Source: Candidatus Cloacimonadota bacterium (GTDB taxonomy: Bacteria > Cloacimonadota > Cloacimonadia > Cloacimonadales > PWNZ01). Taken from it: a DNA stretch of 64,000 bases. A model generated the notes under the pieces. That model was not told where the DNA came from. It did not search any database and was given only the letters and a program-made list of their open reading frames with translations. The position numbers were made by a program, and so were the translations under genes. Shown here piece by piece: positions 34,952 to 44,816 of the stretch (positions within the stretch are counted from its first letter, which is position 1; each line of letters starts with the position of its first letter). The stretch is taken from the NCBI GenBank assembly GCA_003564155.1, contig PWOA01000054.1, positions 26,237 through 90,236 on the forward strand, written 5' to 3'.

Positions 34952-36967
34952 TTATTGTTTAATTAAGTTCTTTAAATATTTTTTGTCAGCTAAATGAGGT
35001 AAAGTAATATGACCTTGCTGAGTATTTTGCTTGTTCCATTCAATGATGGTGTCTAAAGCAGGTGTGTTACCGGCCCAACTTCTTCGAGCTACTCCTCCAA
35101 TAACATCCCAAGAAATACCTTTTCTGATGATTTCATCTGTTCTATAACTACCATCTAAAAGAATTCCATTTCCTCCATTAGATGAACGACCTATTCCAAC
35201 TCCACCTCCATTTGACAATACAACTAAGGTCATTCCGCGTGCAATATTTCCACCAAAACATTGTACTGACATGTCTGATGTTGTATTACTTCCGTCATAT
35301 ATATTTGCTGTTTCTCTGAACGGTGAATCTGTTCCCGAAACATCATGATGATCTCTGCCCAACATGATAGGACCGACTTTTTGATTTCTAACTAATTCAT
35401 TGAATCTTAGGGCTATTTTTATTCTTCCTATATCGTCAGCATATAATATTCTAGCCTTAGTGCCGACCACAAGGTTATTGCTATCAGCTGTTGATATCCA
35501 ATGATAATTATCTCTGTCATTTGCGTTTCTATTTGGGTTTATTGATTCCATAGCTAATTGGTCGGTTATTTGCAAATCTTCTGATTTTCCTGACAAACAG
35601 ACCCAACGGAAGGGGCCGTATCCTTTATCAAAGCATAGTGGTCCCATAATGTCTTCTACATAAGATGGGAAGATGAATCCATCATTTTGATTATCTTTAT
35701 TTTTTGCGATATCGGTTATTCCTGCTTCAAAAACGGAAGTTAAGAAACTGTTACCATAATCCCAAAAATGTGAGCCGCAAGAAGTTAGGCGCTTTATAAC
35801 ATGAAAATGTCTACATAATGATTCATCTACTTTTTTTCTGAACTCGCCAGGTTCCCGCTCCATTAAACTACGCGCTTGTCCATAAGTAAGTCCTACAGGG
35901 CAATAACCTCCTTCGTAAACAACGTGACATGAAGTTTGGTCTGATATAAGTTCCGGAACAATTTCCTTTTTAGCCAAATACTCAAGCAGGTCAACAATAT
36001 TTCCATGATATGCAATTGAAACACCCTTATGATGTTGAGCACTTTTGTCTGCAGTATTTTTCTTAAGATTATTTATCCAATTACCAATCACATCTAAGTT
36101 ATCTGATTTTCTTGCCACCCATCCTTGTGAGTATCTCATTTCTATTCGAGATTCGTCGACTTCAGCTATCACTCCAATTCCTCCGGCTATCTCGACAGCT
36201 TTCGCTTGAGCACCAGACATACCACCTAACCCTGAAGAAACAAAAAGGACACCACTCAAATCTTGATCTGAAGGTATATTCAGATAAAGCCTTCCTGCAT
36301 TAAGTAGCGTTAGATAAGTACCATGGACTATTCCCTGAGGACCAATGTACATCCAACCACCCGCTGTCATCTGTCCATAGTTTGTAACCCCTAAAGCTGC
36401 CAGATGACGGAAATGCTGGGGATTATCCCATTGCCCGATTATTAAACCATTTGTTACAATGACACGGGGAGCCATTTCCGAGGAAGGAAATAAACCTAAG
36501 GGATGCCCTGAACTAACAACTAAAGTTTGGTCATCTCTTATATTCTCTAAGTATTTTTTTACTAAGAGATACTGCATCCAATTTGCAAAAACTTGTCCTG
36601 TTTCACCATAAGTAACTAACTCATAAGGGTACAATGCTACATCAAAATCCAGATTATTATCAATCATAACCTGTAAAGATCTGCCAGCTATTGATCCTTT
36701 ATATTCAGATACGGGTTTTGCTTTAATATTACCGGTAGGCCTAAACCTGTAACCGTAAATTCTTCCCATTGTTTTTAATTCATTTAAAAATTCAGGAGCT
36801 ATTTCTTCATGCAACTCTTTTGGTATGTAACGAAGAGCATTTTGTAATGCTAATATAGTATCGGCTTCCCCAAGGTTATAACCTCTGTTGGGTGCTCGTC
36901 TGATTCCCGGATAAAACTCCTTTCTCGAAGGTAAAACATTACATAGTGTATATTCTTCTTTATGCAT
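34952..36967 (-). CDS. hutU: Urocanate hydratase (long form)
   Basis: GLGGMSGAQAKA NAD-binding motif, SDQTSCH, GPFRWVCLSG, and the VTNGLIIGQWDNPQHF region. 671 aa. GGAGAA lies upstream. Confidence 0.88.
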   Translation of the reverse strand: MHKEEYTLCNVLPSRKEFYPGIRRAPNRGYNLGEADTILALQNALRYIPKELHEEIAPEFLNELKTMGRIYGYRFRPTGNIKAKPVSEYKGSIAGRSLQVMIDNNLDFDVALYPYELVTYGETGQVFANWMQYLLVKKYLENIRDDQTLVVSSGHPLGLFPSSEMAPRVIVTNGLIIGQWDNPQHFRHLAALGVTNYGQMTAGGWMYIGPQGIVHGTYLTLLNAGRLYLNIPSDQDLSGVLFVSSGLGGMSGAQAKAVEIAGGIGVIAEVDESRIEMRYSQGWVARKSDNLDVIGNWINNLKKNTADKSAQHHKGVSIAYHGNIVDLLEYLAKKEIVPELISDQTSCHVVYEGGYCPVGLTYGQARSLMEREPGEFRKKVDESLCRHFHVIKRLTSCGSHFWDYGNSFLTSVFEAGITDIAKNKDNQNDGFIFPSYVEDIMGPLCFDKGYGPFRWVCLSGKSEDLQITDQLAMESINPNRNANDRDNYHWISTADSNNLVVGTKARILYADDIGRIKIALRFNELVRNQKVGPIMLGRDHHDVSGTDSPFRETANIYDGSNTTSDMSVQCFGGNIARGMTLVVLSNGGGVGIGRSSNGGNGILLDGSYRTDEIIRKGISWDVIGGVARRSWAGNTPALDTIIEWNKQNTQQGHITLPHLADKKYLKNLIKQ

Positions 36968-37021: not shown

Positions 37022-37846
37022 TCATTTAATATAGCCTACATTCTCCACATAATTATTTGAAACTATATTGTCATAAAGATAGTGTTCGATGTTATCATTG
37101 ATTGTTTTGATTACATCAGCATGTACAACTCCCAATCTTTTTGGTGATTTCCTTTTCCGGAGCACAAAGATTATATCTGTGTATGAAAAGAGATCTTCGT
37201 GTTTAAAATTTACGTCCAGATTTTCACAAATAACAATTATCTTAGATTTGCTGAAAGTTTGCTTCGCCTTTTTTGCAAAGTATTCAATACGGATCATATC
37301 ATCTGAGTGTAGTTTTTTATAAATAAAGAAAACTGTTAATGGTAAAGATACACAATGCTTGGAAAAGTTCTTTTTCCCATGAATACGGAACTGTAAATCG
37401 AGTTTTTGAGTGAGTTGATAAAAATGAGGTGAGTCTTTATAGGTAAAATTAAGCTCTTTTTCGAGATTGCTGAAACGATTAGGATTAAAATTCATATTCA
37501 TTGTAAAACTTTGTTTACCCCATGAAATACCCTTGTTATTTAGTATCTTTTGTCTTTTTATAATTGAATTAAGATAATCATCAATATAGTTTGACGACAA
37601 GATTGAAGAGCTTTTCTTAAAACCGGTCTTAGTTGGTTTATTATAAGAATATTTGTGACTATCTAACTGAGAGGTAAATTCTGTCATCGCCTTAGCTATT
37701 ATTTCAGGATAGCTTTTATCGTCCGGATTGATTGAAAGTGCATCAACGTATTTTCTATACTGTAACAGTATCTCGTTAAGGTACATCTTGTTAACAATGT
37801 TTTTCTCATCTTTTAGTGTTTTTTTCAGCTCATTCCCATAAATCAT
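37022..37846 (-). CDS. Hypothetical protein (Lys/Asn-rich, no recognisable family)
   Basis: 274-aa ORF with AGGGA upstream of the ATG. It has a 500-nt noncoding stretch on its 5' side. There is only a vague nuclease-fold resemblance, discussed in the findings. Confidence 0.6.
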   Translation of the reverse strand: MIYGNELKKTLKDEKNIVNKMYLNEILLQYRKYVDALSINPDDKSYPEIIAKAMTEFTSQLDSHKYSYNKPTKTGFKKSSSILSSNYIDDYLNSIIKRQKILNNKGISWGKQSFTMNMNFNPNRFSNLEKELNFTYKDSPHFYQLTQKLDLQFRIHGKKNFSKHCVSLPLTVFFIYKKLHSDDMIRIEYFAKKAKQTFSKSKIIVICENLDVNFKHEDLFSYTDIIFVLRKRKSPKRLGVVHADVIKTINDNIEHYLYDNIVSNNYVENVGYIK

Positions 37847-38348: not shown

Positions 38349-40118
38349 TTATGATGAAATTTGTCTGGATCCGGTAACAAAATTTCGGTATTCTGGATAC
38401 TGTTTTATAATTAAATCGTGTTGACCTTTAGCTATCAGATATCCACTGTCAAGAAAGATTACATTATCAACATAACGAATGGTCGAGAGTCGATGGGAAA
38501 CAATAAAACAGGTAATTTCACCAAATTGTTTTGATATGTCGTTCCATAAGTTTTCTTCATTATCGGCATCCAAACTGGCAGTTATGTCATCAAAAAAGAG
38601 AATTTGCGGTTGTCTGAGTAAAGCTCTGGCTATTGCCAGACGTTGCTTTTGCCCACCGGAAAGAGTGACACCTCTTTGACCAACTCTCGTTGAATCTTGT
38701 TCTTTGAAGAGTTGGATTTCTCGTTTCATTTGAACTATATCCAATACTGACCGATAAAGATCATCTGAAACAGAATCTTTACCAAAAATGATATTATCTT
38801 TGATTGATCCGGTAAAGAGAAATGGTTCTTGAGGGACATAACCTATCTTTTCTCTGAAATCAACTAAATCAATCTCATCTAACGGAATACCATTGATTTT
38901 TATTACTCCTTTTTGGGGAGTTAATAAACCGGTTAAAAGCCCTAAAATTGTACTTTTACCTGCGCCTATCGGACCAATTATTATTGCTCTTTCTCCCTTT
39001 TTTGTGTTAAAGCTGACATTGTTCAATATGTTAATTTCATCTTTTGAATAACTGAAAGAAACGTCTTCAAAAGATATCGTTTCAATTTTGGAGAGCTTGT
39101 TTTTTGCTGGTATTACCGGTTTGGCTATAGGGTAGTTTTTTATTTCTTCTAAACGGTCAATGTTGACGAAAGCTTGTTTACCTGAGACAAACAGCTGGGG
39201 TAAATCGAGTATCGGATATATAATCATTGATAAGAAGGTATAAAATGCGAAAAAAGTACCTATCGTTATATCATTTGTTACGACCATTATCCCACCAAAA
39301 ACTATTACGGCTATTTGAGCAAAATAATCAATATACTCATAGATCATCCTTATTCTTGTATTAAGTGTTACTAATCTTATCTCAGTTTTAAAGCGTTTAG
39401 AAAGAGTATCAGTGAAAAATCTTTTATATTTATTCTCGCAGACAAATGCTTTTATGATCTTTATCCCTGAAAAACTCATTTCTAATTGATTATTGATTTC
39501 ACTAATTGCTTCCTGATTTTTTTTAAAGGAATTATGTAATTTATTTGAAGTAATGTAAAAGATGATCATCATTATCGGCAAAGGGATTAAAGTAAGCATT
39601 GTTAATTGCCAATTTAGATAAAACATTGCTGCAATACAGAACATGATTTTTGTGAAAGACTCCAGTGATCTGAATATGCCGGAACACATAAACCAGGCAA
39701 TCTTCGGGAAATCTGTTATATCTGAAGTCAACCTAGTAACCAGATCTCCTGTACGAAAAATATTAAAGAAATTAAAATCTTTCTTTAATATTTCCGAGAA
39801 ATAACGGATTCTAAGAACATATTCAAACGTTGTGTTCATTAATGATCGGAAACCCGGATAAGTAGAAACTGTCAATTTTACCAATCCGACGATAATAAAG
39901 AGCCAGATAATCGCCCATAATTCCGGCCCTATGTCGCTATATATTTCCGGTCTTTCAACCATATACTGTAATGTGTCTAACAATTTTTTTATAATCAATG
40001 GGAAAGTAACAGTTACTGAAGCCGAAACTAATGTTAAAAATAACAATAAACTCAGCATTAATTTGTGAGATCGCCATTCATTAATAATCCATTTAATGTT
40101 TCTTATATTATGTTTCAT
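38349..40118 (-). CDS. ABC exporter, fused permease/ATPase (heterodimer partner 2)
   Basis: Six-TM exporter domain followed by Walker A GPIGAGKST, signature LSGGQKQR and Walker B ILFFDD. GAGGG lies 5 nt upstream of ATG 40118. An alternative ATG at 40133 would add 5 aa. Confidence 0.88.
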   Translation of the reverse strand: MKHNIRNIKWIINEWRSHKLMLSLLLFLTLVSASVTVTFPLIIKKLLDTLQYMVERPEIYSDIGPELWAIIWLFIIVGLVKLTVSTYPGFRSLMNTTFEYVLRIRYFSEILKKDFNFFNIFRTGDLVTRLTSDITDFPKIAWFMCSGIFRSLESFTKIMFCIAAMFYLNWQLTMLTLIPLPIMMIIFYITSNKLHNSFKKNQEAISEINNQLEMSFSGIKIIKAFVCENKYKRFFTDTLSKRFKTEIRLVTLNTRIRMIYEYIDYFAQIAVIVFGGIMVVTNDITIGTFFAFYTFLSMIIYPILDLPQLFVSGKQAFVNIDRLEEIKNYPIAKPVIPAKNKLSKIETISFEDVSFSYSKDEINILNNVSFNTKKGERAIIIGPIGAGKSTILGLLTGLLTPQKGVIKINGIPLDEIDLVDFREKIGYVPQEPFLFTGSIKDNIIFGKDSVSDDLYRSVLDIVQMKREIQLFKEQDSTRVGQRGVTLSGGQKQRLAIARALLRQPQILFFDDITASLDADNEENLWNDISKQFGEITCFIVSHRLSTIRYVDNVIFLDSGYLIAKGQHDLIIKQYPEYRNFVTGSRQISS

Positions 40119-40185
40119 GTTGACCCTCGTCATATTTGTGATATAAGCTAAAAATTATTACTTGATTCTATCCTTTATCAAGCTG

Positions 40186-41961
40186 TTAACCTGCTTCCTT
40201 GTGACTCAAAAATTGTAAATTCACAAGTTTTTTATACTCATTGGATTCATTCAACAATTGGTTGTGAGTACCGGCAGCAATTATATTACCGTTGTGGAAG
40301 AAAATAATTTTATCGGAATGAATAACCGATGAAAGTCTGTGTGCTATAATTATTGCTGTTTTTTGCTCTAATATTTTATCCATAGCTTTTTGTATCTTTT
40401 TCTCTGTGAGAACATCTACTGAAGCAGTTGCTTCATCGAGTATAATGATTTCAGGGTCAAATACAATGGCTCGAGCGAAACTCAATAATTGTTTTTCTCC
40501 CACCGAAAGATTTTGACCTCTTTCCATTATTTCGGTTGCTATACCATTTTTTAAACGGGTAATCATTTCGGATGCACCGACATATTCTAAGGCTTCAAAA
40601 ATCTTTTCATCTACTATTGTATCATCGTAGATGCGGATATTTTCGCGTATATCTCCAGGGAAAAGATAGACATCTTGTAAGACTAACCCGATTTTTTTAC
40701 GCCATTCTTTTAAATCAAAGTCGTTAATATGTATTCCATCAACATAAATACCTCCACTTAGAATATTATAGAAACGACATAACAGGCTTATCGTTGTTGT
40801 CTTTCCACTACCGGAAGCTCCGACTAAGGCAACTTTTTCTCCTTTCTTGATACAGAAGTTAATATTATTCAATATCAACTCATCTTCTTTATATTGAAAG
40901 GAAACATTTCTAAATTCTATTAAATTATCAAATCTTATCGGTTGATATTTATGTTTCTCATTACCTTTATCAACGTCATATTCGCTACTGAGATTGAGGA
41001 TGTTGAAGATGCGGTATATCGATGCAAATGCACGTTGAATTTGATTAATGTTTTCAGAAACCATTATCAAAGGCCAGAATATCCTTTGCGTATATTGAAT
41101 AAAAACAATCAATGTACCAAGTGTAACTAAACCTAGAAGAATTTGAGGTGCTAAAAGATATATCAAGATTACGATGAAGACCGTTTCTATGAGAAAACCA
41201 AATAACCCCCAAAAACTGTATTCGGTAAATGTCGCTCTGGCATCAGTGTTTCTTTTTATTTTGGATTTATCGTCTAATATGCTTATTACTCGTTTTTGTT
41301 GATTGAATAATTGTATAATAGATATTCCTTGTATATATTCGGTAATGATTCCTGTGATTTGAGAATTGAGTTCCCTTATTTTGCGGTAAAATTTACCTAA
41401 ATAACTTACTAAAAGAAATAAACTAATGATAATTATACTTATTGGAATTAATAGTAACAGTGTGACATTGAAATGTCTTAAAAACATAACTATCAACATT
41501 CCTAAAAAGAAAAGTAAATTTCCAAATATAGTAACTGATAAATCTGAAAATAGTTGTCGTACATTTTCGCAATCACTCTCCACTCTTGCTATCAATTCTC
41601 CAACTGGATTATGATCAAAGTAACCTACAGGAAGATGAAGGAATTTATCAAACATTTGCATTTTTAATCGGGTTACAATTTTTATCCCCATTTTTGAAAG
41701 AAGAATAACTTGATAATAGGTCAATAAACCGGACAACACGATTACCGTAACAAACAATCCCGCAAATTGATACAACTTGCCTATGTCGTTATCGGGAACT
41801 ACTTTGTCGACGATATGGCCTATAATTAAGGGATCAATCAGCCGTAGTGTTGAAGTAATCAGCATCATTGTAAGTCCACTAAGAAAAAGCCATCTCTCCT
41901 TCTTAATATAGGGTGTGAGTTCTTTAATCATCTTAAAGTTAATAAATTTTTTCTTTTCCAT
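40186..41961 (-). CDS. ABC exporter, fused permease/ATPase (heterodimer partner 1)
   Basis: Exporter TM domain followed by Walker A GASGSGKTT, signature LSVGEKQL (degenerate relative to LSGGQ) and Walker B IIILDEATAS. This is the first gene of the pair. Confidence 0.88.
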   Translation of the reverse strand: MEKKKFINFKMIKELTPYIKKERWLFLSGLTMMLITSTLRLIDPLIIGHIVDKVVPDNDIGKLYQFAGLFVTVIVLSGLLTYYQVILLSKMGIKIVTRLKMQMFDKFLHLPVGYFDHNPVGELIARVESDCENVRQLFSDLSVTIFGNLLFFLGMLIVMFLRHFNVTLLLLIPISIIIISLFLLVSYLGKFYRKIRELNSQITGIITEYIQGISIIQLFNQQKRVISILDDKSKIKRNTDARATFTEYSFWGLFGFLIETVFIVILIYLLAPQILLGLVTLGTLIVFIQYTQRIFWPLIMVSENINQIQRAFASIYRIFNILNLSSEYDVDKGNEKHKYQPIRFDNLIEFRNVSFQYKEDELILNNINFCIKKGEKVALVGASGSGKTTTISLLCRFYNILSGGIYVDGIHINDFDLKEWRKKIGLVLQDVYLFPGDIRENIRIYDDTIVDEKIFEALEYVGASEMITRLKNGIATEIMERGQNLSVGEKQLLSFARAIVFDPEIIILDEATASVDVLTEKKIQKAMDKILEQKTAIIIAHRLSSVIHSDKIIFFHNGNIIAAGTHNQLLNESNEYKKLVNLQFLSHKEAG

Positions 41962-42102
41962 TATTCCTCATATCTGGTAGAAAATATATTGTTTTTATCT
42001 TCTTTATGGTATTATTGAGCTAATAAGTTGTCCTACATACTGTAGGTGTTGTAATGTCCTGGATGAAATAATTTGTGATATTATAATTTGAAAGAAAGGA
42101 GC

Positions 42103-42134
42103 AAAAAAAAACGCCACAGGTCTGTGCCCGTGGC
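42103..42134 (-). terminator. Intrinsic terminator inside the 5' leader of the ABC exporter operon
   Basis: The minus-strand RNA reads GCCACGGG-cacaga-CCUGUGGC, an 8-bp stem with one G-U pair, followed by U9 (the plus-strand A-run at 42103-42111). Confidence 0.7.
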
Positions 42135-42159
42135 GTTAGTAAAAATTATTCTAGAAAAT

Positions 42160-42246
42160 CTATTGTTTAGGACACCGTTCTCCAAATATAATTTTAGCTC
42201 TGATAGCTAAGATGACCACGGGATTGAAATTTGGTAACATGCTCAT
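42160..42246 (-). CDS. Candidate 28-codon leader ORF (MSMLPNFNPVVILAIRAKIIFGERCPKQ)
   Basis: ATG at 42246-42244 and TAG at 42162-42160. GGGAGG at 42265-42260 sits 13 nt upstream, which is a long spacer. The ORF lies between a TTGACA box and the leader terminator. It is below the ORF-track length cutoff. Confidence 0.35.
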   Translation of the reverse strand: MSMLPNFNPVVILAIRAKIIFGERCPKQ

Positions 42247-42585
42247 GTCTCTTAATTAACCTCCCTTCTAAAGTATTATTACTGAGGAACCGAAATATAT
42301 ATCACTGTTATTATGTCAATAAAAATCAAATTATCTGTGTTGGCGATAGAGAGTGACATCCTTTAGAAAAGAGACCAAAAATCACAATATTTCGTTTTTA
42401 AGGATGATACCGGGAAGTTTGAAAAAATTATTGAAGCAACATGTATATAGTACTTAATCATAAAGATACAGGAATTATTATCGCTTTGTTTTGATCATCG
42501 TACATGCTATTAACAAAGAACTGTGTAGATTTATTTTGACAATTTATGCGTCATTATTTAGATCAATACATAGAAGGAGGATGTT

Positions 42586-43788
42586 ATGAATATTATGAGG
42601 ATTTCCATATCATTTCTAATTACTATATGTTTATCCACGTCTGTTGTCAAAGCAGATGTTAATGTCCAAGATATTGTAGTCAGTATTAACCGATTCACTT
42701 TTGATTATTTGTCTAATTTAGGAGATCACAACAGTATATTTTCTTCTTATTCGGTATCAGCATCTTTAGCAATAACCTATGCAGGTTCATCGGGAAAAAC
42801 TGAGGAAGAAATGGCTCAAACAATGTATTTCCCACAGAAAACGAAAGAATTTCATACAGCATTTTATGGATTAAATAATGCGTTGGTAAAAAGAAAACAT
42901 GAAGGTATTTCTCTTCATATAGCTAATGCATTGTGGGCTGATAATACAACATTACTTTTAGATGATTATTTAACGACAACCAATGAATACTATGGTGCAG
43001 GAGTTAATAGAGTCGATTTTATTAATCAAACTGAAAAAACCAGGTTAAAGATTAATAGATGGATTGAAGAACAAACTGAAAATCGGATCAAAGATATGCT
43101 TGAACCTAATACAATAACCCCATTAACTCGTTTAGTCATAACAAATGCAATTTATTTTTTAGGAAGTTGGCAAGATGTATTCTTAGAGGAGAATACTGAA
43201 GATAAATCATTCTATTTGACATCAGGAGAAGAAATTACAACACCTTTTATGCAAAGAGAAGGTTTTTATAATTATAGTTTTAATGATGACACCAAAATCG
43301 TAGAAATACCATATGAAAAAAAAGAGTTAGCTATGGTTATTATTATACCAAAAGTAGAACATACTCTTCAAGAATTGGTAAATAGACTTAATTACGAAGA
43401 ATTTGAAAAAAATATCAGTACTTTAACGAGAGGTTATATAAGTTTCCAGATTCCCAAGTTCAGCTTCGAATCCAAGTATAATCTCAAAGATCTGCTTATT
43501 AAGCTGGGAATGCAAAAAGCTTTTACCGATAAGGCAGATTTCTCGCATATGATAAGTTCTGATCAAGAATTACAAATTGACGAAATAATACATCAAGCCT
43601 TTATCGAAGTTAATGAGAAAGGTACTGAAGCTGCTGCATCTACTGCTGTAGTTATGAGAACAACAGCATTTCAGGATGAAGTAAAACCTATTGTATTCAG
43701 AGCTGATAGACCATTTATGTTCTTTATACGAGATACAGTTAACGGAGCAATTTTATTTAGCGGTACCTTATATGATCCGCGAAATTGA
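42586..43788 (+). CDS. Serpin family serine-protease inhibitor (secreted)
   Basis: Has a signal peptide. The hinge and reactive-centre loop read EKGTEAAASTAVVMRTTAF, followed by RADRPFMFFIRD...ILFSGTLYDP. 400 aa. AAGGAGG lies upstream. Confidence 0.9.
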   Translation: MNIMRISISFLITICLSTSVVKADVNVQDIVVSINRFTFDYLSNLGDHNSIFSSYSVSASLAITYAGSSGKTEEEMAQTMYFPQKTKEFHTAFYGLNNALVKRKHEGISLHIANALWADNTTLLLDDYLTTTNEYYGAGVNRVDFINQTEKTRLKINRWIEEQTENRIKDMLEPNTITPLTRLVITNAIYFLGSWQDVFLEENTEDKSFYLTSGEEITTPFMQREGFYNYSFNDDTKIVEIPYEKKELAMVIIIPKVEHTLQELVNRLNYEEFEKNISTLTRGYISFQIPKFSFESKYNLKDLLIKLGMQKAFTDKADFSHMISSDQELQIDEIIHQAFIEVNEKGTEAAASTAVVMRTTAFQDEVKPIVFRADRPFMFFIRDTVNGAILFSGTLYDPRN

Positions 43789-43952
43789 ATTTATTATAAT
43801 TAGATACTCAGTTTATTAGTTATCGCTATTCATATTATTTTGGTTTGATTCAGAGCTAAACATAATCAATTATACTGATTGACAATATGTAGTATTTTAG
43901 TTTTTTACGTTATCAATCCAAACATTATTAAGTTTTAGAAAAGGAGATTTAA

Positions 43953-44816
43953 ATGGTTACGAATGCAGATACCGTTTTTATTGATTTGCAAAAAATCAGA
44001 AAACAGAAACCTCTTGTCCATAACATAACCAATTATGTTGTAATGAGTAATACGGCAAATGCCTTGTTATCATTGGGAGCTTCACCAATTATGGCACATG
44101 CAGTTGAAGAAGTCCATGATATTGTAAATATTTCATCAGCTTTAGCTGTTAACATTGGCACACTTAGCAGTCATTGGATTAAAGCTATGAAAATTGCAAT
44201 GAAATCAGCCTTTGATAAAGGGATACCTATAGTATTTGATCCGGTAGGTGTGGGAGCAAGTACATTTAGAACACAGACATGCATTGACTTACTAAGATCG
44301 GTAAAGCCAACTATTATCAGAGGGAATCCTTCAGAGATTATCGTATTATCTAATGTATTACAGACTATAATAACTGATTATAATAATTTAAGTAATACTG
44401 ATACGCAGGTTTCTAAAGGAGTTGATTCGACAGAAAGCAGTTATACAGCATTAGATGCAGCTAAACTACTTTCTCAAATGTTAGATTGCATAGTTAGTGT
44501 AAGTGGTGATATTGATTTCGTTGTTTATAATGATTCTATTGAAAAAATTGCAAACGGGCATATTATGATGCCTTTAGTAACCGGTTTGGGCTGTACAGCA
44601 ACAAGTTTAACAGCAGCTTTCGCAGCTGTTAATAAATCTTCTTTTCAGGCAGCAGTTAATGCAATGATTATTATGGGTATTGCCGGAGAAATTGCAGCTT
44701 CTGAAGCATTAGGTCCGGGCACATTACAGGTTGAGTTTATTGATGCTCTTTATTCATTGGACAAAGAGCAGATTGAAGCAAGGATAAAGATTTCATCAAA
44801 TCCAATCGGTATATGA
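43953..44816 (+). CDS. thiM: Hydroxyethylthiazole kinase
   Basis: PLVHNITNYVVMSNTANALLSLGASPIMA, GNPSEI, and GLGCTATSLTAAF. Confidence 0.9.
   Translation: MVTNADTVFIDLQKIRKQKPLVHNITNYVVMSNTANALLSLGASPIMAHAVEEVHDIVNISSALAVNIGTLSSHWIKAMKIAMKSAFDKGIPIVFDPVGVGASTFRTQTCIDLLRSVKPTIIRGNPSEIIVLSNVLQTIITDYNNLSNTDTQVSKGVDSTESSYTALDAAKLLSQMLDCIVSVSGDIDFVVYNDSIEKIANGHIMMPLVTGLGCTATSLTAAFAAVNKSSFQAAVNAMIIMGIAGEIAASEALGPGTLQVEFIDALYSLDKEQIEARIKISSNPIGI

Follow-up and report, generated by a model that had tools for sequence, protein, structure and literature searches.

A translated leader ORF and conserved terminator upstream of a heterodimeric ABC exporter operon in Cloacimonadota: a candidate ribosome-mediated attenuator

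In a 64,000-nucleotide stretch of DNA from a Candidatus Cloacimonadota bacterium (contig PWOA01000054.1; this whole stretch is called the window below), two adjacent minus-strand genes encode the halves of a heterodimeric ATP-binding cassette (ABC) exporter. The spacer upstream of this pair, which is indeed 624 nucleotides (nt) long (positions 41962-42585), carries a small open reading frame (ORF) followed by an intrinsic terminator. An initial annotation of the region proposed that a translated leader ORF and the terminator together gate the exporter genes, and comparison with related loci supports this proposal, since the arrangement is conserved in all 11 of the closest loci. Judged from sequence, we assign a probability of roughly 0.6 to the element being a ribosome-mediated (leader-peptide) transcription attenuator for the exporter operon. 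Its layout is that of an attenuator: a short ORF with its own ribosome-binding site precedes the structural genes, a terminator stands upstream of them with no intervening promoter, and a candidate antiterminator strand is within ribosome reach. The RNA pairing originally put forward as the switch, which involves the segment CCCGUGG within the ORF, is absent from the relatives, whereas a pairing by the end of the ORF is conserved. The attenuator idea holds, but neither the pairing first proposed nor the suggested inducibility by drugs is supported.

Results

A leader module shared by related exporter loci

We compared the window with the ten closest homologues of the first ABC protein (ABC1), which are 64-73% identical to it and are designated L039 (the closest, at 73%), L041, L050, L042, L052, L044, L045, L051, L046 and L047; with the window sequence (W) these provide 11 leaders. 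Those close homologues that carry a name are all from Cloacimonadota, so the locus does not stem from a Firmicute. All 11 loci, whose ABC1 proteins are 64-100% identical to that of the window, have in common a module with a fixed order of parts: TTGACA, a T-rich block, a Shine-Dalgarno (SD) sequence, an ATG, an ORF of 27-29 codons, its stop codon, a gap of 17-25 nt, and a conserved 11-bp terminator with U9. In every leader, 196-217 nt separate TTGACA from the end of the U tract. The neighbours upstream differ among the loci and include a serpin, DivIC, a sensor protein, an MscS channel and a hypothetical gene.

Across the loci the terminator lies 23-294 nt from the ABC start codon. In L042, L044, L045 and L051 this interval is only 23-31 nt, which leaves no space for another promoter, and in these loci the exporter can therefore be transcribed only by read-through. 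For the window, the interval of about 140 nt noted originally was measured as 141 nt from the end of the T run to the ABC ATG (41961), and no sigma-70-like site was called within it.

L049, the next homologue (59% identity), lacks the module, and no strong terminator was found within 500 nt upstream of L049 or of 26 further homologue loci (29-52% identity). In the reference-genome collection, the nearest homologue is 52% identical; at that locus (L001, 3600-3760) a tRNA gene and a transposase-like ORF lie directly upstream, with no leader or terminator. The leader motif occurs once in the 64-kb window, and the terminator motif was not found in the viral contigs searched.

Layout of the window leader

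Read on the minus strand, the window contains every element listed in the initial annotation at the position given there. The -35-like promoter box TTGACA (42314-42319) is followed at a distance of ~14-24 nt, in all 11 leaders, by a T-rich run ending in G or GG. In the window this block is TATATATTTCGG (42290-42301, minus strand), which ends in GG and is tentatively assigned as a -10/-7 element; a sigma-70 scan makes no call on it. The best sigma-70-like match of the region (TTGACA, 17 nt, TATAGT, 11/12 positions; 42622-42650, minus strand) sits within the neighbouring serpin ORF and is directed at the leader, and may represent a second upstream promoter or a chance match.

The SD sequence of the leader ORF, GGGAGG (42260-42265, minus strand), lies 13 nt before the ATG. 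This gap had been flagged as long, rightly so given that other window genes have 4-9 nt, and the same 13-nt gap recurs in L039. An SD-like motif stands 4-9 nt ahead of the ATG in about half of the large window genes, and SD-led initiation is therefore in use here. The leader ORF itself (42160-42246, minus strand) has 28 codons plus a stop, with its ATG at 42246 and TAG at 42162-42160, and encodes MSMLPNFNPVVILAIRAKIIFGERCPKQ. A local hairpin inside the ORF, UUAGCU-AUCAG-AGCUAA (42194-42210, minus strand), had also been predicted and does appear in the minimum-free-energy fold of the window leader. The segment AGCUA is present at the aligned position in L039, L041 and L050, and in the L039 and L041 folds it pairs instead with the 5' untranslated region. 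An AU-rich spacer of 22 nt (42138-42159, minus strand) connects the stop codon to the terminator stem. Searches against Rfam returned no gathering-score match anywhere in the 64-kb window, and at permissive E-values the leader region gave only sub-threshold matches to small RNA models, all on the terminator.

The terminator

A terminator scan placed the intrinsic terminator, AACGCCACGGG / CACAGA / CCUGUGGCGUU followed by U9, at 42103-42137 on the minus strand. The terminator described previously is therefore present, but its stem is longer than first stated, as the 5' arm (42137-42127) and 3' arm (42120-42110) form 11 bp, including 7 G-C pairs, before a T9 run that reaches 42103. Folded alone, the structure has a free energy of -18.5 kcal/mol. 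The expected number of terminator-like sites in the region was 0.3, and the scan called 2. The consensus of the 11 leaders is (A)ACGCCRCGGGNAC...CCYGYGGCGUU, then U9 and G, and the stem-loop positions GCC.CGG..AC do not vary, despite ABC proteins that are as little as 64% identical.

This terminator is the only consensus helix identified by RNAalifold among the 11 leaders, with 99% of its alignment cells paired. Three of its pairs show two-sided compensatory change (for example A-U to G-C, 4 versus 7 sequences), and the covariation exceeds that of all 500 shuffles and of every slid register. Judged from the alignment, the terminator is real. Its stem begins 17-25 nt after the stop codon in 11 of 11 leaders. 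For the ribosome we take a footprint reaching from roughly -12 nt to +15 nt relative to the P site. A direct steric or coupling effect of a stop-codon ribosome on the hairpin was considered and is ruled out by this geometry, as the stem lies beyond the +15 edge.

Translation of the leader ORF

The ORF keeps its length of 27-29 codons in all 11 loci, and an SD-like motif is found 6-13 nt before the leader ATG in every relative. No in-frame stop interrupts the reading frame in any leader, while the other two frames contain 0-6 stops each (mean about 2.2). Seven pairwise comparisons gave pN/pS values of 0.25-0.77. The L050 leader differs from that of L041 by a 3-nt insertion that remains in frame, and L042 and L052 encode recognisably the same peptide by means of synonymous swaps (UUA to CUU, AGA to CGC, CCU to CCG). 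On this comparative evidence, the leader ORF is translated.

The encoded peptides end in [R/K]-C-[P/A/V] followed by 2-4 further codons. The C-termini are FGERCPKQ in the window, FRRRCPKQ in L039, PRRRCPSL in L041, PKRRCPA in L050, FRYRCPR in L042, YRYKCPRK in L052, QRNRCPIAN in L044, QGDRCPIAN in L045, YSDRCPIAN in L051, KGDRCAHAS in L046 and YRDRCVHAS in L047, each directly followed by the stop codon. The dipeptide [R/K]-C is present in 11 of 11 leaders and is followed by Pro in nine, with all four Pro codons in use; Ala or Val replaces the Pro in L046 and L047. Between sub-lineages only this C-terminus is conserved, and the remainder of the peptide ranges from hydrophobic to polar, which argues against a conserved micro-protein. 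A small membrane protein was ruled out because hydrophobicity is not conserved across the leaders. Programmed frameshifting or stop-codon read-through into the terminator was also rejected, since both alternative frames close before the terminator in L041 and L050; in several relatives and in the window, the +1 frame stays open across the terminator.

Pairing between the end of the ORF and the terminator

Over its last ~20 nt, the ORF is complementary to three parts of the terminator: the apex of the 5' arm, the loop and the start of the 3' arm. In the window, the 5' strand of this candidate antiterminator consists of GGAGAAC plus GGUGUCC, which are the Gly-Glu-Arg-Cys-Pro codons (42170-42183, minus strand; core GUGUCC at 42175-42170), and the 3' strand is GGGCAC in the terminator apex and loop (42129-42124), pairing with the GGUGUCC segment. 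GGUGU is found in 10 of the 11 leaders, with AGUGU in L052. When partners were sought for the terminator 5' arm and loop, the stretch around the Arg-Cys-Pro codons ranked first in 7 of the 10 relatives. We also folded a shorter RNA that starts shortly before these codons and stops where the terminator loop ends, this being the portion present until the 3' arm is synthesised. The minimum-free-energy fold pairs GGUGUCC with GGGNAC(N) in 8 leaders, with core-pair probabilities of 0.88-1.0. In the alignment, 91% of the antiterminator cells are paired, compared with 30-59% in slid registers.

With the purine-rich codons just upstream of GGUGUCC included, the pairing also takes in loop positions and the opening bases of the 3' arm. 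For this extended duplex the predicted energy is -21.8 kcal/mol in L041 and -17.2 kcal/mol in L050 and L042 (p at most 0.003), and p is at most 0.04 in 7 of the 11 leaders. For L039, L041 and L050, the two states, antiterminator and terminator, are within 1.6-2.6 kcal/mol of each other. Moreover, the terminator apex is more sequestered than in shuffled sequences in all 11 leaders (p at most 0.023 in six). Residue -3 of the peptide varies among Gly, Arg, Lys and Ser, yet the nucleotides GG are kept there in 8 of 11 leaders, as would fit a constraint on the RNA.

A further helix, between the start-site region and the end of the ORF, is significant only in L044, L045, L051, L046 and L047 (p 0.004-0.04 versus shuffles). 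Its strands are the SD-AUG region and the last codons plus stop, for example UUAAUUGCGAUGG with CCAUCGCCAAUUAA (L044 2820-2926, L045 1095-1200, L051 50-155, L046 1085-1190). A universal long-range helix of this kind was ruled out, as it is not significant in the subgroup to which the window belongs. The possibility that GGUGU serves as an internal SD sequence was likewise set aside, because no start codon at a suitable distance was seen on reading the sequences.

The exporter genes and their neighbourhood

The two exporter genes encode ABC half-transporters of 591 amino acids (ABC1; 40186-41961, minus strand) and 594 amino acids (ABC2; 38349-40133, minus strand), both matching the Pfam families ABC_membrane and ABC_tran (PF00664, PF00005). 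As read from the translation, ABC1 has a canonical Walker B motif (IIILDE, with LDE) and a degenerate signature motif, LSVGE. ABC2 has a degenerate Walker B motif (ILFFDD, with FDD) that lacks the catalytic Glu, together with the canonical signature LSGGQ. On the basis of these motifs, the pair carries the asymmetric ATP-site signature of heterodimeric exporters such as BmrCD. Adjacent genes for half-transporters, each with a transmembrane and a nucleotide-binding domain, and asymmetric motifs place the pair with exporters that have one degenerate ATP site (BmrCD, TM287/288 and LmrCD type).

The divergent neighbour of the leader (42586-43788, plus strand) is a full-length bacterial serpin (PF00079, E = 5e-107). 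Beyond the exporter genes, several relatives have a FetA/FetB-like pair, consisting of an ABC ATPase of ~240 amino acids and a UPF0014 permease (L042 6734-7797, L044 6590-7761, L046 4973-5079, L047 5635-5758). In this place the window has a 274-amino-acid ORF (37022-37846, minus strand) with no Pfam or NCBIfam match. A urocanate hydratase homologue of 671 amino acids is encoded at 34952-36967 (minus strand). Its match to the hutU model begins at residue 99, so that either the protein has an N-terminal extension of ~100 residues or its start codon has been called too early. On the other side of the serpin, thiM (43953-44816) heads a thiamine-salvage operon, and the spacer upstream of it (43789-43952, plus strand) has a TTGACA and a T-rich block resembling the leader promoter. 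A thiamine pyrophosphate riboswitch upstream of thiM was not detected, either window-wide at the Rfam gathering score or locally at E up to 1.

Discussion

A possible mechanism of attenuation

If the leader is a ribosome-mediated attenuator, its geometry suggests how the switch could be thrown. Counted from the stop codon, the core GUGUCC begins 10-16 nt upstream and the terminator stem 17-25 nt downstream. The promoter would produce a leader RNA of ~180 nt with the SD sequence, the ORF and the terminator. As long as translation kept up with RNA polymerase, the first ribosome would reach the stop codon, and with that codon in its A site it would cover GGUGUCC while its edge remained at least 5-10 nt short of the stem. 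The antiterminator strand would then be masked, the terminator would fold and transcription would stop. A ribosome that lagged or stalled earlier, owing to translation inhibitors, starvation or poor initiation, would leave the 3' end of the ORF free. This free end could capture the emerging apex and loop of the terminator, in which case the terminator would be blocked and the polymerase would enter the ABC genes.

Additional helices that differ between lineages probably tune this switch. In the subgroup of L044, L045, L051, L046 and L047, the start-site region pairs with the end of the ORF, and this helix would serve there as an anti-antiterminator and would also limit initiation; the window has the CCCGUGG helix and a hairpin around the Arg-Cys-Pro codons. 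It is rather unlikely, but conceivable, that the invariant [Arg/Lys]-Cys-(Pro) is not just a side effect of the RNA pairing and constitutes a novel sensor in the nascent chain, a motif that arrests translation or slows termination in response to a small molecule such as an exporter substrate or a thiol-reactive compound. If that were true, the same nucleotides would encode both a sensor peptide and an antiterminator strand.

Several observations weigh against attenuation through the end of the ORF. The core of the antiterminator shows one-sided change only (U.G to U-A in L041 and L050) and no two-sided change. Both strands are simply conserved, so that the pairing rests on complementarity and not on covariation, and the data are consistent with it without proving it. 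The core-pair probability is weaker in L051 (0.72) and L046 (0.57), and L047 pairs in a shifted register; the two leaders in which the conserved antiterminator is weak or register-shifted and the Pro is replaced are L046 and L047. Erosion has left 6 bp of the conserved helix in the window; a fold in which it is forced lies 16-17 kcal/mol above the terminator state, and p for the extended duplex is 0.22 there. When a ribosome mask was slid along the leaders in equilibrium folding, no stall position common to them switched the 5' arm. Selection on the peptide, and not on the RNA, could account for the invariant [R/K]-C. Finally, the sample of leaders is small, with 11 sequences from about 5 sub-lineages.

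Alternative explanations

For the window alone, it is conceivable that the working antiterminator is the helix of the initial annotation, with a ribosome over codons 5-15 deciding the outcome, although we consider this unlikely. The complementarity claimed for it is accurate: CCCGUGG (42222-42216) can form Watson-Crick pairs along its full length with CCACGGG (42133-42127), and one further U.G pair brings the helix to 8 bp, formed by CCCGUGGU in codons 9-11 (42215-42222, minus strand) and GCCACGGG of the 5' arm (42134-42127). Its energy of -15.6 kcal/mol compares with -9.4 ± 2.2 kcal/mol for dinucleotide-shuffled upstream sequence (p about 0.01). The 7-mer CCCGTGG has three copies in the 64-kb window against 1.1 expected, and two of the copies are the inverted pair of the helix itself. 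If the transcript is cut before the 3' arm, CCCGUGGU is the preferred partner of the 5' arm, with a predicted probability of about 1.0, and forcing this helix leaves a fold 8.7 kcal/mol worse than the terminator state, compared with 16.4 kcal/mol for the conserved helix. It may thereby make up for the eroded conserved antiterminator in this lineage. However, none of the 10 relatives has an equivalent of the helix, not even L039 with its 73% identical ABC1, one or two results at p = 0.01 are unremarkable among 11 leaders, and the helix must close a loop of ~80 nt (about 78 nt between the strands). Nor does it yield the regulatory logic attached to it. The helix is free both without a ribosome and, at a probability of about 1.0, with a ribosome at the stop codon, and therefore it alone would provide no basal termination. 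Normal translation would give read-through and a stall at codons 5-15 would give termination, which is the opposite of an inducible pump.

Other explanations shift the emphasis from the RNA to the peptide or to a separate factor. The small ORF could be a stand-alone micro-peptide gene, its product, with Arg-Cys-Pro conserved at the C-terminus, being a substrate, partner or signal of the exporter, and with the terminator setting a high peptide-to-transporter ratio through constitutive leaky read-through and no switch. Bacteriocin operons, in which a peptide gene, a leaky terminator and an ABC transporter follow one another, offer a precedent; pN/pS below 1, peptides conserved within sub-lineages and an invariant [R/K]-C amid synonymous codon variation would be in keeping with it. 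We nevertheless hold it to be rather unlikely, because beyond the C-terminal motif the peptides resemble one another neither in sequence nor in physicochemical character (those of the window and L039 are hydrophobic, while that of L046, MEMQRNEILPANSVSVSVKGDRCAHAS, is polar), and there is no leader-cleavage motif, no peptidase domain in the ABC proteins and no modification enzyme nearby, where neighbours vary. It also leaves unexplained the stop-to-terminator spacing, the conserved loop and the complementarity of the loop to the ORF end. Alternatively, [R/K]-C-[P] might be a nascent-chain arrest or sensor motif in the manner of TnaC, SecM or RAPP, at which a stall near the ORF end, cued by a small molecule or by exporter activity, sets terminator use. 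Arg and Pro are key residues of known arrest motifs (PMC10951233, PMC7897499). The leaders have a basic residue-Cys in 11 of 11 and Pro in 9 of 11 with all four codons, R/K-x-R/K in 7 of 11, and the motif at a fixed 2-4 sense codons from the stop. Such an arrest is improbable, since a ribosome stalled on Arg-Cys-Pro would cover the antiterminator strand and end about 17-24 nt short of the terminator, and so could only favour termination. Moreover, the second Pro of RAPP and RGPP is missing, the Pro is lost in L046 and L047, and what is kept at -3 is the GG nucleotides (8/11) and not a residue class, which points to RNA constraint. It is very improbable that a trans-acting RNA-binding protein or a ligand recognises GGUGUCC or the GGGNAC loop, with translation of the ORF being secondary. 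The unusual conservation of the terminator stem-loop sequence (GCC.CGG..AC) despite 64% ABC identity would suit such recognition, but there is no Rfam match, no consensus structure beyond the terminator and no conserved neighbouring regulator gene, and with SD, ATG and open frame so strictly conserved, translation would seem to be an integral part.

Relation to known attenuators

Taken as an attenuator that works through the end of its ORF, the leader finds its nearest functional counterpart in bmrB-bmrCD of Bacillus subtilis, where experiments have shown ribosome-mediated attenuation and the terminator is more stable than the antiterminator (PMC4191407, Reilman et al. 2014). The parallel with BmrB drawn in the initial annotation is sound as to function and logic, but does not extend to homology or layout, as BmrB has 54 codons with the terminator inside the ORF (PMC4191407). 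Both systems have a promoter-proximal translated leader and a terminator before a heterodimeric ABC exporter with one degenerate ATP site, an antiterminator (here a candidate) less stable than the terminator, and a proposed logic by which slow translation leads to read-through. They differ in that the terminator, antiterminator and anti-antiterminator of BmrB all lie inside its ORF, whereas the Cloacimonadota leader has 27-29 codons and a terminator 17-25 nt past the stop; the phyla also differ, BmrB being from Bacillota. Set apart by ORF length and terminator position, the Cloacimonadota leader does not belong to the BmrB family, and homology of peptide or RNA is not expected.

In the trpL, hisL and pheL leaders of enterobacteria, a ribosome at the stop codon masks antiterminator segment 2, and an earlier stall frees it. 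The leader described here resembles them in that a short ORF ends upstream of the terminator and the same masking logic is proposed. Unlike them, it has no regulatory run of codons for one amino acid, with a single Cys codon in the leader, its stop-to-terminator distance is shorter (about 20 nt), an exporter and not a biosynthetic operon lies downstream, and an anti-antiterminator is not conserved across the leader family.

The mef(E)/mel system provides an example of a leader-peptide attenuator of antibiotic-inducible efflux (PMC4335068), and shares with the present leader a short upstream ORF and a terminator with an antiterminator (here a candidate) before an efflux operon. Leaders of that type sense specific drugs via defined stalling motifs. 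The motif R/K-x-R/K is associated with macrolide stalling; it is confined here to 7 of the 11 leaders, with G-E-R in that of the window. Arrest peptides of the RAPP/SecM type carry a C-terminal R-A/G-P-P (or RAGP) and are found upstream of Sec or YidC genes (PMC10951233, PMC12992588), whereas the motif of the present leaders, [R/K]-C-[P/A/V]-x, lacks a second Pro, and ABC exporter genes lie downstream. Our search of the literature found nothing that links Cloacimonadota with such a leader. The leader is a new family of its own within a well-known kind of regulator, and is not represented in Rfam.

Implications

To our knowledge, almost nothing is known about gene regulation in the uncultured phylum Cloacimonadota. 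The leader shows SD-led translation and TTGACA-type promoters in use there, and as a compact module of ~180 nt it represents a conserved, sequence-defined cis-regulatory family. By analogy with Bacillus and its BmrCD exporter, the arrangement suggests that Cloacimonadota of anaerobic digesters and sediment would induce a heterodimeric ABC exporter when translation is impaired.

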